From a virus (Duplodnaviria; Caudoviricetes), in the IMG/VR virus record IMGVR_UViG_3300020047_001679, positions 500 through 64,499 of that record: a stretch of 64,000 nt of DNA; one strand, written 5' to 3'. A model generated the notes under the pieces. That model made no database searches and was not told the origin of the DNA. It worked only from the letters and a program-made list of their open reading frames with translations. Positions 8,595-35,993 of the stretch are shown piece after piece (positions within the stretch are counted from its first letter, which is position 1; every line of letters starts with the position of its first letter). The position numbers were made by a program, and so were the translations under genes.

Positions 8595-8954
8595 CTAACT
8601 TAAAAATCTTAATTTGTATAACGTAGAGCTCAATAACTCTTGCGTATTATCAACCATTTGCTGTAAGTATCCGTCAGTTAATGTGCCACGATACGCATCA
8701 AATGCTGTCATTTTTTCTTTCAAGTAAGAAATCATATCGACTCCTTCTTCTAATTTAAAGGATTTGTATCCCTTAATGATACCATACTTACCTTGGTATG
8801 CTTCAACAAATGCATCAAACTGGTCAACAATCCCATCGTATAATTCATTCAAAGCCTTGTGCTCTGCAAATGATGATGTCTGTAGGTGTGCGATATGAGA
8901 TACGTTCTCAATCTCCATTAATGCACTAACGTATTCTTGTACTGTCATTTTCAT
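8595..8954 (-). CDS. Ferritin/Dps-like four-helix bundle protein (DUF5856-like)
   Basis: HIAHLQT..FAEHKALNELYD..D.FVEAYQGKYG..TLYKLRFL pattern. Confidence 0.7.
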   Translation of the reverse strand: MKMTVQEYVSALMEIENVSHIAHLQTSSFAEHKALNELYDGIVDQFDAFVEAYQGKYGIIKGYKSFKLEEGVDMISYLKEKMTAFDAYRGTLTDGYLQQMVDNTQELLSSTLYKLRFLS

Positions 8955-10394: not shown

Positions 10395-11228
10395 TTAGAA
10401 AATATTTAATTGAACCAGTCTTCCGTTTTGTTCTATATCTGAAATTGAATTTGTGCAGTATATTTTATCAAAGTACTCTGATAATAATCCTAATCCCGCA
10501 CTGAATATACCATGAGTAACAACTAGGTAAATAGGTTTATGTGTTTGTTTTCTTATTTCCTTTGCAAGTTCTATAAATGTTCTTCCTCCATCGCAAATGT
10601 CATCAATAATAATTATAGACTCTATGCCATCTAATTTAATTTCAGGTAATTCAGTTCTAATAATATCTCCTGTTTTAATATCACGGATCTTAGATGCTGT
10701 TACCACGTTTGTGATATTGAATTGTTTTGCAACATCATATATCTTTTTCAATGCACCCGCATCAGGTGAAACAATTAAGGTCTCAGCTGAATGGCCATTT
10801 AAAATTTCTAAAGAAAAGTCAACCAACTTATGATTGTCTAGTTTTTTATAATTGTTTAAACACGCCTCCAATACATCACTATGTGGGTCCATAACAGTTA
10901 TGGACGCAAAGTTTTGGCTGTTAATGATTGGACAAATTACTTGTTTCAGATAATTGATTCCGCCATCTTGGAACTTTCTATCACTTCTAGCACCAACAAA
11001 ATATGGTACATATAAATGAATTCGTAATGGGCAAAGGTTTCTCAACGCTTGATTTGCACATATGATAAGTTCAAGGTCTTTAAAATTATTAAGACGCGAT
11101 TTAATCATTACTATTTTATCTAGTAAACCTTTTGGATCGGTGATGTCAACCGTTTGTTGTCCATCGGGAAACTTCGAAATCTTGAATGGGATATCTGATT
11201 TTTCTGGGTAAGCTAAGTTTAATATCAT
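10395..11228 (-). CDS. prs: Ribose-phosphate pyrophosphokinase-like protein (probable NARP1 Adps, ADPR-PP synthetase)
   Basis: KFPDGQ, PYFVGARSDR, DPHS, SPDAGA, IIDDICDGGRTF and VTHGIFS motifs; overlaps the NAMPT-like gene by 4 nt. Confidence 0.85.
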   Translation of the reverse strand: MILNLAYPEKSDIPFKISKFPDGQQTVDITDPKGLLDKIVMIKSRLNNFKDLELIICANQALRNLCPLRIHLYVPYFVGARSDRKFQDGGINYLKQVICPIINSQNFASITVMDPHSDVLEACLNNYKKLDNHKLVDFSLEILNGHSAETLIVSPDAGALKKIYDVAKQFNITNVVTASKIRDIKTGDIIRTELPEIKLDGIESIIIIDDICDGGRTFIELAKEIRKQTHKPIYLVVTHGIFSAGLGLLSEYFDKIYCTNSISDIEQNGRLVQLNIF

Positions 11229-12685
11229 TTTAGTTTATTTCTAATTTCAGTTAATGTAGTTTTATTAATAAAATATCCATCAAGGTAAATGTTTTGTAAC
11301 ATACCTTGTGGCTCTAGGTCCCATGAAACTTTATCTAACAATATCATGTCGCTTGAAATCATTAGTAAACCTGTTGCTGATTTCTTAGTACCGTCGTCTG
11401 TAATGGGATCTTTAAAGATTTCTCTACCAACACCATCCACTTCGACGTAGGTTGCTTTCATAGCAAATCCGAAAGTATCGCGAGTGTTATATTGGTAAGT
11501 GAATGAACCTATACCTAATACTACATTTGTTGATGCAAAACCTTTTGCTTCTAATCTAGCACATATTTCATCTGCTCTATCTATTGTGATTGAGTCACCG
11601 TAGATTGCCCCAATGTGTGGGTCAAGAACTTTATAACCTTGTTCATTAATTGTTCCACCAAATACATCCCAAAGTAATTCTATTACACCTTTTTCTTGTG
11701 GAGTCCAACTATTTCTATGTTCTAATTTTAATAAGATCCTTCCAGGATATGTTCCACATAATATATCTACTGGATCACCGCTATCAGGACGAATAACCAA
11801 CTTACCATCACGAGCAAGAATTTCCTCTTTTAAAGTAACCAAATGTTCGGTGCATACTTTCCATAAGTCCCAAGTGTCAGATACTATTGACAGTATACCT
11901 GTCGGATATGTTTCAAGTAATCTCTTAAACGTACCAACCTCATCATCAGCACCACCAGCACACATGACGGAATGCTCAGTTGCGTTAACACTACCACCGA
12001 TAAATCCATCTTCATTGTAATATTTTCTGGCACCGTAAAGTGTAGGTAATGAATCTGTACCACTAAAGGATGTTAGGTGTCCAAGTCCCGAACTAATAAC
12101 AGCATCCACAGAATCCATTCCTCTCATAGAGAAGTCATGTCCTTGCCAATCAATGAACCACCCCTTTTCAGCATCAGTTTTTTCTTGCCACTTAGTTAAT
12201 ACTTTTCTGTAGGCATGAGCTATTGTAGCTGACGTCATTGGTTTCCATAACAAATTAGATATGATTGTTTCTAGGTAATTGGTTATCCAATAGAAGTCGG
12301 GATGTGTGTTGTATATTGTAAGCACAGGAACTTTCATTGGAACCAGTGTTCCTTCCTCAATGGCTTTAACTCTAATAGGTAGGTAACCTAGGTCATGTAG
12401 TGCCTCAAAATGAGACACGTCATAATCAGTACCTAAGTACATTGACAACTCTCTTTTCATTTCACCGCATACATCATCTTTAGGTTTGCTAAAGAATTCG
12501 TTTTGAAACGCTTCATGTATTTGCTGAATAACCATTTGTTGCCCAAATGATACTACTTTGTCGCATCCTTTAGGAGCATACTTGTTACTACGTGGAGTGA
12601 AGTTTGAGTAAACTAAAGTTGTTCCTTTAGGATACTGTTGGTGATGCCCGGTTTTATAACCGTCAGTGAGCAATAATGGATTCAT
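11225..12685 (-). CDS. nadV: Nicotinamide phosphoribosyltransferase-like protein (probable NARP1 Namat)
   Basis: TDGYKTGH, HDFSMRG, ATEHSVM, SIVSDTWD, VIRPDSGDP, IYGDSIT and RDTFGFAMKAT motifs. Confidence 0.9.
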   Translation of the reverse strand: MNPLLLTDGYKTGHHQQYPKGTTLVYSNFTPRSNKYAPKGCDKVVSFGQQMVIQQIHEAFQNEFFSKPKDDVCGEMKRELSMYLGTDYDVSHFEALHDLGYLPIRVKAIEEGTLVPMKVPVLTIYNTHPDFYWITNYLETIISNLLWKPMTSATIAHAYRKVLTKWQEKTDAEKGWFIDWQGHDFSMRGMDSVDAVISSGLGHLTSFSGTDSLPTLYGARKYYNEDGFIGGSVNATEHSVMCAGGADDEVGTFKRLLETYPTGILSIVSDTWDLWKVCTEHLVTLKEEILARDGKLVIRPDSGDPVDILCGTYPGRILLKLEHRNSWTPQEKGVIELLWDVFGGTINEQGYKVLDPHIGAIYGDSITIDRADEICARLEAKGFASTNVVLGIGSFTYQYNTRDTFGFAMKATYVEVDGVGREIFKDPITDDGTKKSATGLLMISSDMILLDKVSWDLEPQGMLQNIYLDGYFINKTTLTEIRNKLK

Positions 12686-12838
12686 GATTATATTGTATTA
12701 AGGTGAAAAATGAATCGGGCTCAGTTCTTATGGTATGAACCCGATTACTGTTGATAAAACTTCTTTAAGGGTCGCAGTTGTACACCTGGAGAGCCAACCT
12801 TAGCGTGCAGTTCTTATGGAATGCAGGAGAAGTATGTT
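12686..12838 (-). promoter_or_regulatory. Structured 5' leader with tandem CCAUAAGAAC-loop hairpins (candidate cis-regulatory RNA)
   Basis: Repeat CAGTTCTTATGG at 12722-12733 and 12808-12819, each mostly forming a hairpin loop; 11-bp stem at 12713-12746; TACCTTTG box at 12843-12850. Confidence 0.6.
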
Positions 12839-12893
12839 GTAACAAAGGTATGAAAGTTATAATATAATGCTGTGTTAAAATTATAATATATTG

Positions 12894-14675
12894 CTACCCG
12901 TCGCACGAAATGCAACTTTCATCAGTAGCACGTGTAGCAATATCTGCTCTCAATACAGACTCTGTGCGCATGTAGTATAATGTTTTGATGCGTTGTCTCC
13001 AAGCCTCCATGTGCACTTGGTTAATCCACTTAGGTGTAGCCTGAGATGGGAACGCTAGGTTCAATGAAACAGATTGGTCAATGTACTGCTGACGGATACC
13101 TGCCTGCTTAATTAACTCTAATTGGTTTATCTCCTTGAATGTTTTGAATACATCCTTAACTGGAGTACTTCTATGTGCTATGTCATCTATTGATAAATGT
13201 TTGTGGTTAAACAATCTTCCATCTATAAAGCACCAATTATCTAGCTCAGGTATATCTTGGATTGATCCACCATCAGCTAAGATTTGGTCCCAAGTTTCTT
13301 TGGTGTTAATACCAATCTTCTTCAACACTTTCTCAAGCTCTTTGTTCTTGCGAATGAATGTACCCTTAGCAGATTGGTCTGTGAATACGTTAGCGGCCCA
13401 AGGCTCAACACCAGCAGACACATTACCACTTAGCTTAGAGTTGGATACCGTGGGAGCAATAGCACGTAAGTGGGTGTTACGCATCCCTGTCTCTACGCAC
13501 CATAGTGGCTCACCATATTCTGCGGCCATGTCACGTGATGCACGCTCAGACTCAATCTTAATCTGAGAGAATATCTTACGTGTCTCAAACTGAGCAAGTA
13601 ATCCTTCGAACGGAATACCTTTCTGTTGTAAGTATGTATGCCATCCTAGTACACCTAGTCCAATAGCACGACCTTTCTCAGCAAAGCGAACTACATTCTC
13701 AAAGCCTTTCATGTTCTTAGCTTTCTGAATGAACTCCTCAAGCACACCATCTAGAAACCATGTAGCTACATAAATTAAGTCTGTGTCTTTCCACTCGTCA
13801 TACTTAGCTAAGTTGACTGATGATAGACAACACACAAAGCTATGGCTCTCATCTGTATGCAACACGATCTCCGAGCAGATGTTAGTCATGTAAACCTTCA
13901 AGCTATTCTTCTTGTATGCCTCAGGGTTCTGCTTGTTCACGTTACCCTTGAACATAATGTACGGCTCACCTGTAGCCTTACGCTTCTGTAATAACTTGCC
14001 CCACTTGCGACGTGCATCCGGGTCACCATCTTCTAGCTTACGCATAAACTTATCGCCCACTACAGCACACTGGTGTAGGTTTAAGCACTGGCGATTCACA
14101 TCACCCTTAGGCTCACGAATCTCCAACCAATCCTCAAAGTCTTTGTGCTCAATATTAAGGTTGCTTGATGCCGCACCACGACGCACATTACCTTGTGATG
14201 TTGCAAGAATAGTAGAGTCAAAGATTTTAGTGAATGGGATAACACCATCAGATGTTCCGTTCTTAGATATCTTTGATCCTGCAGGACGGATGCGATTGAA
14301 ACCTACGCCTACTCCACCACCGTGCTTTGCAAGTAGCATCATTTCTAAGTTCTTGGTACCAATGTCATATACTGAGTCAGCTATGTCAATACCATAACAA
14401 GAGATAGGCAAGCCACGATCAGTGCCTGTGTTAGATAGCACAGGTGTTGCTAGGTTTAACCATCCATTCCAGATGTATTGAAAGAACTTGTCAGCCATCT
14501 CAGGCTTACCAAGTCTGTCAGCTACAGCACGAGACACACGTGCGTATGCATTAATTGGCTTCTCTCCTGCAAGCAGGTATCCACCTGAGATTGTCTTTAC
14601 GTATTCGGGTGAGTTACCCCAAGCTGGGAAGTCTACATCTAGTTCCCATCCTAGGTTCTCTGCGTGATTAATCAT
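12894..14675 (-). CDS. nrdA: Ribonucleotide reductase class I alpha subunit, no obvious ATP cone
   Basis: ATPVLSN, LPISC, GGGVG, TNICSEI, CCLSSVN, AIAPTVS, DQSVSLN, KTLYY and C-terminal CISC. Confidence 0.95.
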   Translation of the reverse strand: MINHAENLGWELDVDFPAWGNSPEYVKTISGGYLLAGEKPINAYARVSRAVADRLGKPEMADKFFQYIWNGWLNLATPVLSNTGTDRGLPISCYGIDIADSVYDIGTKNLEMMLLAKHGGGVGVGFNRIRPAGSKISKNGTSDGVIPFTKIFDSTILATSQGNVRRGAASSNLNIEHKDFEDWLEIREPKGDVNRQCLNLHQCAVVGDKFMRKLEDGDPDARRKWGKLLQKRKATGEPYIMFKGNVNKQNPEAYKKNSLKVYMTNICSEIVLHTDESHSFVCCLSSVNLAKYDEWKDTDLIYVATWFLDGVLEEFIQKAKNMKGFENVVRFAEKGRAIGLGVLGWHTYLQQKGIPFEGLLAQFETRKIFSQIKIESERASRDMAAEYGEPLWCVETGMRNTHLRAIAPTVSNSKLSGNVSAGVEPWAANVFTDQSAKGTFIRKNKELEKVLKKIGINTKETWDQILADGGSIQDIPELDNWCFIDGRLFNHKHLSIDDIAHRSTPVKDVFKTFKEINQLELIKQAGIRQQYIDQSVSLNLAFPSQATPKWINQVHMEAWRQRIKTLYYMRTESVLRADIATRATDESCISCDG

Positions 14676-15400: not shown

Positions 15401-16546
15401 TTAATGTGAGTCACCTACATCTTTTTTCTCAGCATAGATGTGGTAGTCTGGATTGATTACTTTAGCTACTCGTTTACGGTCACCGCTGTGATGTTTAATT
15501 ACAATACCTTCATGTGGTACTTTAGTACCATCAATAAATTGATTGAATGTATACTTATCTTGTAATTCTTGTGACCAATTACTAACTTCTAATATAGGTA
15601 CGTAAGGTAAATTTAAAGCTTGGGTTGTTGTATTCCATGAATTGTATGTTGGTAGATATTCACCATTTAATTCAACATCAAATCCAGCGAATTTAATAGT
15701 ATCTAATCCATATTCGTAATTCTTTTGGATACCTTTACCATAGATTTCTCCATATACGATAAAACCAGTACCTAATGTTTCTGTAGTGTATTGTGATTTA
15801 ACATACTTCCATAGAAATCCTTTGATATCATATTGATCAGCAATTGTTCTCCATACATCAGTATCATAGAATCCTTGTGTATCAGATCCTTTCTCCACAT
15901 TATGTGATCCATAAATGAATTCATAATCAACCCATTTATCTGCTACTCGGATTAACTTCTTGAAGTGATTCCATACTGATAACTTAGTCTTCTTGATAAT
16001 ACCATAACGAGCATTTGTACCATGAATCTTACGAGTGATTTCAACTACATCATCTTCAGTAAACATATTAGGTACGTTCTTAAAGTTAGGGAACTTATAG
16101 TAGACATGGAAGTTCGGATTGTCCTTGTATTTAATTTTATGTCCACCTGCTAACTGAACCATTTTCACTGGTGGTTCATATTTGAAGATGCCTAATTCTT
16201 CCATCAAATCTTTACCCTCCATCCCTTTCACTACAGCTAATTTTTGTAATTTAGAGTCTGCACTAATTGGGATAATCAAACATTCAGAATACACACCACG
16301 CAATTTGACAGTACGTACACGTCCACCTTTGCGTAAGTAATGAGTAACACCTATACGATCAGATAGTTCTTGCGGAATAACTGCGTCTGTAGTAGCGATA
16401 ACTATTAATTGGTCTACATAGTTTTCACCTTTCTTACTTATGCAATTCCATCCATTTACTATTACTAATTCAATGTTGTCTGCTCCATCAATTGATTTGA
16501 TGTCGGTTACTTTACCAACAAAGCAAACGCTGTTTTGATTTTCCAT
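15401..16546 (-). CDS. ATP-dependent RNA ligase (DRB0094/Rnl2-like family)
   Basis: N-terminal IDGADNIE..KLRGVYSE module; motif I KIHGTN; YGEIYG, FDV, EGIVIK and AKVIN motifs. Confidence 0.85.
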   Translation of the reverse strand: MENQNSVCFVGKVTDIKSIDGADNIELVIVNGWNCISKKGENYVDQLIVIATTDAVIPQELSDRIGVTHYLRKGGRVRTVKLRGVYSECLIIPISADSKLQKLAVVKGMEGKDLMEELGIFKYEPPVKMVQLAGGHKIKYKDNPNFHVYYKFPNFKNVPNMFTEDDVVEITRKIHGTNARYGIIKKTKLSVWNHFKKLIRVADKWVDYEFIYGSHNVEKGSDTQGFYDTDVWRTIADQYDIKGFLWKYVKSQYTTETLGTGFIVYGEIYGKGIQKNYEYGLDTIKFAGFDVELNGEYLPTYNSWNTTTQALNLPYVPILEVSNWSQELQDKYTFNQFIDGTKVPHEGIVIKHHSGDRKRVAKVINPDYHIYAEKKDVGDSH

Positions 16547-35570: not shown

Positions 35571-35993
35571 TGTTCGAGATCTTTGATCTTGAATACTAGA
35601 ATCAGACTCAAGTTTATAGCTTGGGTCTTTTTTATTTTCCATTTTTGCGTAATAAATGTGTATAAGTGTATGAGCAAATAATTTTGTACACAAAAGTAGG
35701 CGACTTCTAACTTATTGATTTTCAGTTACTTAACTATTCTATTTTATTATATTTACTTACTTTAATTCTTTATAAGAGGAAAAATATAAAAATATATATT
35801 AAGGGTAAATACACTTTCTATATAAGAGTATATAGAGATAAGTAGGAGTAAAGTTTGCATAATATGGTATAATTAATAATTATTTACTGATTATCAGTTA
35901 GTTAGCTATATTTAACTCATAGAAATAGGTGTTATTCAATAGGTTTATTCACAAATCCTTGCACTTTTAATTTGTTTTTATTAACTTTGTCAC

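Follow-up and report, generated by a model that had tools for sequence, protein, structure and literature searches.

AbiF proteins are the proposed ancestors of Cas13, and the RNA nature of their antitoxins was shown only recently. Both AbiF and AbiD/F are HEPN RNases that serve as toxins of type III systems with an RNA antitoxin, according to two reports (PMC13064643, PMC12737573). In these reports, the AbiF noncoding RNA (ncRNA) is described as binding the AbiF dimer, with one RNA per protomer, and as blocking the RNase site (PMC12737573, PMC13064643). This antitoxin mechanism has been shown for an AbiF from Prevotellaceae and for the RNA RCd22 of C. difficile (PMC12737573, PMC13064643, PMC12373285). 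RCd22 is reported to carry two abiF motifs, both of which are needed, and to act in cis as well as in trans (PMC12373285, bioRxiv version).

Several phage RNAs have been linked to systems of this kind. A phage hairpin, the cos site of sk1, inhibits AbiF (PMC13064643), and the pseudo-ToxI RNA of phage phiTE provides a precedent for phage mimicry of an RNA antitoxin (PMC3475682). The abiF sRNA family (Rfam RF03085) has been annotated in cyanophage S-CREM1, without a decoy reading (PMC9964418). The proposal that an orphan AbiF RNA carried by a phage acts as a decoy was not found in the literature searched, which did not include Zilberzwige-Tal et al. 2025 (Cell), and AbiF ncRNAs from phages or Bacteroidota may already be included in that paper, in its supplements or in those of PMC12373285.

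The locus described here lies in a phage record of 64,499 bp with direct terminal repeats, which is a complete genome. The window, meaning the whole stretch of 64,000 nucleotides that was analysed, comprises almost all of this record. On the minus strand, the RNR large-subunit gene (12894-14675) is followed by a 208-nt intergenic leader (12686-12893), a NAMPT-like gene (11225-12685, with its ATG at 12685) and a PRPP-synthetase-like (PRPS-like) gene (10395-11228). The NAMPT-like product matches the Pfam families NAPRTase (3.3e-39) and NAMPT_N (1.8e-08), whereas the PRPS-type domains of the second product fall just below their cut-offs (Pribosyltran, 26.2 bits with a cut-off of 26.3; Pribosyl_synth, 24.4 bits with a cut-off of 27). 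Reports on NARP1 define this system as a pair of genes, Adps and Namat (PMC12774641, PMC13586617). As judged by Pfam domains alone, including the sub-cut-off PRPS domains, the adjacency of the PRPS-like and NAMPT-like genes (10395-12685, minus strand) matches the NARP1 layout, making these genes candidates for Adps and Namat, respectively. No NMNAT-type gene was found with Pfam among seven neighbouring ORFs. The leader heads a 2.5-kb accessory cassette (10417-12920, minus strand) that, from its domains and layout, is a candidate NARP1-like element.

Both the window and the whole record contain precisely two copies of the sequence CCATAAGAACTG, one at 12808-12819 and the other at 12722-12733; they are 86 nt apart and both fall within the leader. 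When up to two mismatches are allowed, the count rises to 6 matches against 6.37 expected, which is the chance level, and the other four lie elsewhere. Likewise, loops of the CCAUAAGAAC type have only two exact copies in the phage genome. Each copy belongs to one of two structural units. Unit 2, which we also call hairpin 2 (12700-12754, minus strand), begins with the 5' flank CAACAGUA and forms an 11-bp stem (12736-12746 with 12713-12723) closed by the 12-nt loop UACCAUAAGAAC (12724-12735). The stem is followed by CAUUUUUC, which includes a U-run at 12706-12710 within the string C-A-UUUUU. This hairpin has a predicted folding energy of -14.7 kcal/mol (z = -4.99), and none of 200 shuffled sequences folds as well. 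An 11-bp stem followed by C-A-UUUUU may also be an intrinsic terminator, and the U-run suggests that hairpin 2 would additionally act as a leaky one. A simple terminator scan was silent on hairpin 2 because it permits only loops of 3-8 nt; the sigma-70 and terminator scan is in general ill-suited to Bacteroidota promoters and 12-nt loops. Since the NAMPT-like ATG follows only ~20 nt after the U-run, a candidate reading is that this gene is reached solely by polymerases that read through unit 2 or that start further upstream.

Unit 1 (12759-12836, minus strand) has a different construction. Its 12-nt loop (12810-12821) is held between the two arms of a UGCA/UGCA top stem (12822-12825 with 12806-12809), and a candidate lower helix, ACUUCU/AGAAGU, pairs 12828-12833 with 12759-12764. 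Both helices are present in the minimum free energy (MFE) fold. Considered alone, however, this domain folds no better than expected (z = +0.25; 108 of 200 shuffled sequences reach an equally good fold), and the fold of the whole 171-nt leader has a z of -1.23. An earlier reading of this DNA, made from the letters and open reading frames (hereafter the original prediction), had singled out an unusually long noncoding leader, a box at 12843-12850 and two loop-bearing domains. The leader, the box at exactly those positions and the drawing of the second domain all agree with the present analysis. For the first domain, the lower helix and the UGCA stem are retained, the second arm as drawn differs from the arm in the MFE fold, and the shuffles give no sign that the junction as a whole is more than chance.

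Hairpins of the unit 2 type are frequent in bacterial genomes, where they tend to precede genes of the AbiF family. A pattern scan of 185,579 genomes, one per prokaryote species, returned at least 120 rows, overwhelmingly from Bacteroidota. Among the matches listed, 100 of 120 form the hairpin and 99 of these carry a T-run. Behind 62 of these 100 hairpins an Abi_2-like ORF begins at a distance of ~15-100 nt. Two further Abi_2 loci among the host matches listed carry variant hairpins. The remaining 38 of the 100 listed hairpins have no Abi_2 ORF, 7 of them for want of sequence, which indicates that orphan copies can persist without an obvious partner. All six downstream ORFs that were tested match Pfam Abi_2 (E 6e-47 to 5e-60) and PADLOC AbiD, and ORFs behind such leaders match PDB 8VZ6, an "Abi family protein" (E 9e-66 to 4e-43).

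The same association is seen from the side of the toxin gene. In a sample of Bacteroidota genomes that was not chosen by pattern, 7 of 101 carry an Abi_2 gene. A hairpin of the same architecture lies right before the ATG at 11 of 12 Bacteroidota Abi_2 loci, two of which are in genomes first found by the loop pattern. Their loops fall into the classes CCAUAAGAAC, CCGUAAGAUC, CCUUAAGAAC and CCGUCAGAAC, plus a different type with CCUCUG. Only one true tandem (L314) is present among the 100 host hairpin loci in the matches listed.

To relate the phage leader to this class, a covariance model (R2) was built exclusively from 48 host abiF leaders, each of which precedes an Abi_2 gene. R2 matches hairpin 2 from the first to the last of its 56 model positions, so that the 5' flank and the 3' C-A-U-run are covered as well (50.9 bits, E 1e-9), and hairpin 2 is almost certainly homologous to the Bacteroidota abiF leader. 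The match to hairpin 1 is local (12804-12825; 23.1 bits, E 0.0069) and covers model positions 17-38, which correspond to the loop and the top stem. A second model, R1, gives unit 1 a score of 22.3 bits.

The position of the candidate promoter adds a further point of comparison. The box TACCTTTG (12843-12850, minus strand) is a candidate Bacteroidota-type -7 promoter element of the form TAnnTTTG that would serve unit 1; a comparable box is lacking for unit 2. By itself the box is weak evidence, because it is a near-chance motif: TACCTTTG is counted 4 times against 2.6 expected, and TANNTTTG 83 times against 68.3 +/- 8.1. At the host loci among the matches listed, 51 of 62 abiF leaders are boxed and 47 of these have a box-to-stem distance measure of 11 or 12. 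The distance measure for unit 1 is 11, which is the fixed register of these host abiF leaders. Judged by alignment and register, the loop, the top stem and a host-like promoter position are preserved in unit 1. Its 5' half seems to be colinear with the host leader, with the candidate lower helix apparently replacing the host lower stem. It differs from host leaders by ~41 extra nt on its 3' side, an insert that would lie where some host classes have a single-stranded bulge. In the leaders of L314, L320, L476, L478, L481 and L483-L485, the 3' strand has a single-stranded bulge of 7-9 nt beneath the top stem, and the protein of L478 is the closest to PDB 8VZ6 in the sample (225 bits).

The existing Rfam family does not capture these RNAs. 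RF03085, like the host class described here, is associated with RNAs upstream of Abi_2/AbiD/F genes. In contrast to R2, however, the RF03085 model (gathering threshold 37 bits) finds neither of the two window hairpins, with 0 matches in the whole record at E values up to 10, and it also misses 7 host abiF leaders of the same class. The Bacteroidota AbiF leader class that goes undetected by the Rfam model therefore constitutes an annotation gap.

The phage leader thus resembles an AbiF RNA antitoxin in having a hairpin with a conserved exposed loop and a terminator-like U-run directly 5' of the next gene, and in fitting the Bacteroidota leader model along the entire length of hairpin 2. Its tandem layout is also reminiscent of the two abiF motifs of RCd22 (PMC12373285) and of the host tandem at L314. 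Unlike the host leaders, it has no abiF gene behind it or anywhere in the genome. The gene that follows is NAMPT-like, and a search for Abi_2 in the complete phage genome gave no match at E values up to 1. We conclude that the leader is an orphan copy rather than a toxin-antitoxin locus, and that it has the makings of an antitoxin mimic, namely a phage RNA that by its predicted structure resembles a host antitoxin and whose toxin gene is missing.

This situation extends to other phages. Two viral scans yielded 185 loci, of which 75 carry hairpins representing 47 distinct sequences (among the matches listed). No Abi_2-like piece is present within the locus sequences of any of the 185, the 75 hairpin-bearing loci included, and no real match was obtained in five whole viral records. 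One weak Abi_2 match in these records, in G003 (13 bits), was rejected because the protein is an AAA ATPase. Toxin-less copies are common in Bacteroidota-type phages.

We propose that the leader RNA is a promoter-driven tandem mimic of the AbiF antitoxin that serves as a decoy and keeps this defence off, a reading that we hold to be probable, if with moderate confidence. The leader would encode a small RNA of ~130 nt with two loop-bearing hairpins of the AbiF-antitoxin type, whose transcription would begin at the candidate TACCTTTG box or continue from the RNR gene by read-through. As the labile antitoxin of the host runs down during infection, the phage RNA would bind host AbiF and, by the pseudo-ToxI principle, abortive infection would not be triggered. 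Two heads on one RNA could fill both protomers of the AbiF dimer. The U-run after hairpin 2 would provide a leaky terminator before the NARP1-like genes, in the position that the host hairpin occupies before abiF. Like pseudo-ToxI, the proposed decoy resembles the RNA antitoxin of a host type III system, is carried by a phage without the toxin, and would act by suppressing abortive infection, as has been proposed for pseudo-ToxI (PMC3475682). It differs in that the toxin would be the HEPN protein AbiF and not ToxN, in that the RNA is another one, with a hairpin in place of processed 36-nt repeats, and in that the role assigned here is a putative one.

Should toxin-less antitoxin copies be carried by phages across an entire phylum, they would amount to a widespread RNA-only form of anti-defence that is invisible to protein-centred searches. 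The position of such an RNA at the head of an NAD+-reconstitution cassette suggests a compact counter-island directed at more than one defence.

A rather different function had been put forward in the original prediction, in which the leader was seen as a riboswitch or attenuator for NAD+, ADPR, NMN or nicotinamide that controls an NAD+ operon. The NAMPT-like and PRPS-like neighbours on which this idea drew are indeed present, and, together with the tandem layout, this gene neighbourhood is all that the leader shares with the NAD+-I and NAD+-II riboswitches; the proposed link between the leader and NAD sensing found no support. Rfam searches with 801 nt and 171 nt, a check that the original prediction had itself proposed, returned no family on the minus strand at E values up to 10. 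The only matches were sub-threshold and mostly on the opposite strand, and those to the greA leader, snoR13 and TeloSII_ncR30 were set aside as chance. Nor does the motif recur with NAMPT. In a set of 80 viral loci with NAMPT homologues (68-84% identity; three of these loci have <400 nt of upstream sequence), the loop 10-mer with 0-1 mismatch was found within 400 nt upstream in 0 of 80, and with 2 mismatches in 8 of 80. Assignment to NAD+-I or NAD+-II was consequently rejected, there being neither an Rfam match nor a recurrent association with NAMPT. The same hairpin stands before unrelated genes in phages and shows a strong association with Abi_2 in bacterial hosts, an outcome that the original prediction had named as one that would speak against NAD specificity. 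The structure, moreover, is a simple hairpin without a ligand pocket. We regard a metabolite-sensing role as highly improbable.

The hairpin copies in other phages bear on how the loop is used. An exact-pattern scan of IMG/VR returned at least 120 rows, and among the matches listed the extension of the stem beyond the pattern is bimodal, with 25 rows having 9-10 further pairs and the rest 0-4. When 19 distinct phage copies are aligned, both partners vary at 8 of the 11 stem pairs. Of the cells in this alignment 98.6% pair, a percentage that is inflated since the 19 rows were selected for having a stem, whereas the compensatory changes and the bimodality are unaffected by this selection; as a control, partners slid by 1-3 columns pair in 28-36%. 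The original prediction had held that stems that differ around a kept loop point to a binding loop, and had called for a covariation check of this kind, whose result agrees with it. Because the stems vary around a constant loop, the loop is likely to be a binding surface, and a protein-binding role is the likeliest one for it. In the pattern harvests the loop is identical by construction, and loop conservation hence rests on two smaller unbiased samples, the 12 Abi_2 loci and 78 orthologous phage sites. The stem is a perfect 11-bp helix in most of the phage copies examined, whereas in most host leaders a single nucleotide bulges out beneath the top stem. These natural variants of loop and stem form a ready set for dissecting how AbiF recognizes RNA.

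The 78 orthologous sites lie after a capsid-like gene. Seventeen of them carry an AbiF-type loop, in 7 variants resembling host classes, and the other 61 have ordinary small-loop terminators or nothing similar. At one orthologous position the loops thus switch among classes that resemble those of host abiF leaders. Across the phages, the hairpin follows capsid-like genes, lies between tRNA genes or precedes terminase genes. A loosened version of the motif gave 0 matches in 124.7 kb of adjacent coding control sequence.

These contexts give weight to the main rival of the decoy, which is that the phage has captured an abiF promoter-leader or a plain terminator with no function in trans, so that the RNA only starts, stops or attenuates transcription, much as abiF-type hairpins elsewhere in phages would merely terminate after a gene. 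Most phage copies are indeed placed between a stop codon directly 5' and a T-run on the 3' side (32 of 41 and 55 of 75 among the viral matches listed), ordinary terminators occupy sites orthologous to the hairpin (the 61 of 78 above), and in our leader the stem and U-run of hairpin 2 come directly before NAMPT. The orphan copies that persist in bacterial genomes fit this reading as well. Yet termination needs no 12-nt loop, and it is the loop that is kept while the stems are rewritten. The switching among 7 host-like loop variants at one site is not what drift would give, and each of the five whole records searched with model R1 has exactly one copy, so that the hairpin is not simply repeated at all terminators. 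Other terminators of the window are small-looped, for example that at 35599-35636. Taken together, we consider a captured leader without a trans role somewhat unlikely.

A third possibility is that the leader is a cis switch that responds to AbiF. Here AbiF, or another host protein that recognizes the loop, would alter termination at hairpin 2, and NARP1 expression would be tied to the presence of the defence. The hairpin lies downstream of the box and so close to the NARP1-like genes that a further promoter would not fit in between, and the C. difficile RNA is reported to lower abiF expression in cis (PMC12373285, bioRxiv version). In most phages, though, the hairpin does not precede any anti-defence gene, the motif is found at none of the 80 NAMPT loci, and a change in termination upon AbiF binding would have to be supposed. 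A cis switch of this type is quite unlikely in our estimation.

The decoy could also be combined with such a switch. In this joint reading, a two-headed decoy would clamp both AbiF protomers, would act as an AbiF-sensing attenuator whose read-through into the NARP1 genes changes when AbiF titrates the hairpin, and would take part in an arms race between phage and host loops. The combination as a whole is unlikely. If true, one RNA would disarm one defence and turn on the counter-measure to another, and Bacteroidota phages would be rewriting terminator loops that track host AbiF antitoxin classes, which would be an arms race at the level of RNA.

The distribution of the cassette is accessory and sporadic. 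Two relatives, L329 and L331, whose RNR proteins are 93-95% identical in amino acid sequence, are without 10417-12920 in blastn comparisons with the window, and their alignments jump from 12921 to 10416 and from 12895 to 10410, respectively. The loop motif is absent from the locus sequences of six close relatives by RNR (L328-L333). When whole records of five relatives were searched for the hairpin, four had no match and the fifth had one weak match of 27.3 bits. Among 50,697 phage records, blastn likewise found no match to this region. The same two relatives lack a second insertion, an RNA ligase gene (15401-16546, minus strand) located between the RNR small- and large-subunit genes, which matches Pfam RNA_ligase and the OB-fold family PHA02142. 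This ligase could repair RNA that has been cut by host nucleases.

The cassette is carried by L474, a related metagenome contig of 66.5 kb. Its leader is identical to that of the window at 207 of 208 nt, while the flanking parts of RNR and NAMPT are 83.0% and 82.8% identical. Recent recombination could account for the near-identity of the leader. A patch of 100% identity is also found inside NAMPT (11900-12049), which serves as a warning that the near-identity may reflect mosaic recombination.

Contigs from other sequencing runs cover parts of the same region. Two freshwater runs yielded DNA contigs that extend over the leader, and a DNA contig of run X2 spans 12648-13094; runs with small shares were left out of this comparison. 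One RNA-library contig joins 12752 to 12921, with hairpin 2 kept and unit 1 gone (12753-12920 missing). The contigs of the RNA libraries (X15 and X16) are not evidence of transcription, and the parts that they leave uncovered are uninformative. Because one natural variant exists without 12753-12920, the second head (unit 1) may be dispensable. No convincing second loop copy was found near the hairpin in 41 viral hairpin loci among the matches listed.

Several additional features of these loci were recorded. In L106, L171, L414 and L459 the hairpin is located between the tRNA genes of a tRNA array, from which it would be released by tRNA processing. The small-loop terminator at 35599-35636 (plus strand) shares an outer frame (…GAC-stem…GGUC-U-run) with the AbiF-type hairpins, a hint that the mimic may arise by the rewriting of terminator loops from such a frame. 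The window also contains a small DUF5856/ferritin-like gene (8595-8954, minus strand), and in L093 and L182 a 167-aa gene, similar to this kind by eye only, lies directly before an AbiF-type hairpin.

On the host side, the genomes G011 (L257) and G015 (L216) have the hairpin, with Abi_2 not found at E values up to 1e-8, and these orphan hairpins possibly lie in prophages or their remnants. At L220, the start region of abiF is broken by a stop. Finally, loci of an AbiF subfamily of the YYRLS type (L274, L296, L322, L326 and L224) carry a second conserved element, …AAUACACCUCC(C/U)AUGCCUC…, after the hairpin, and their ATG is preceded by another hairpin that resembles a terminator, which suggests that their leader RNA is longer and composed of two parts.
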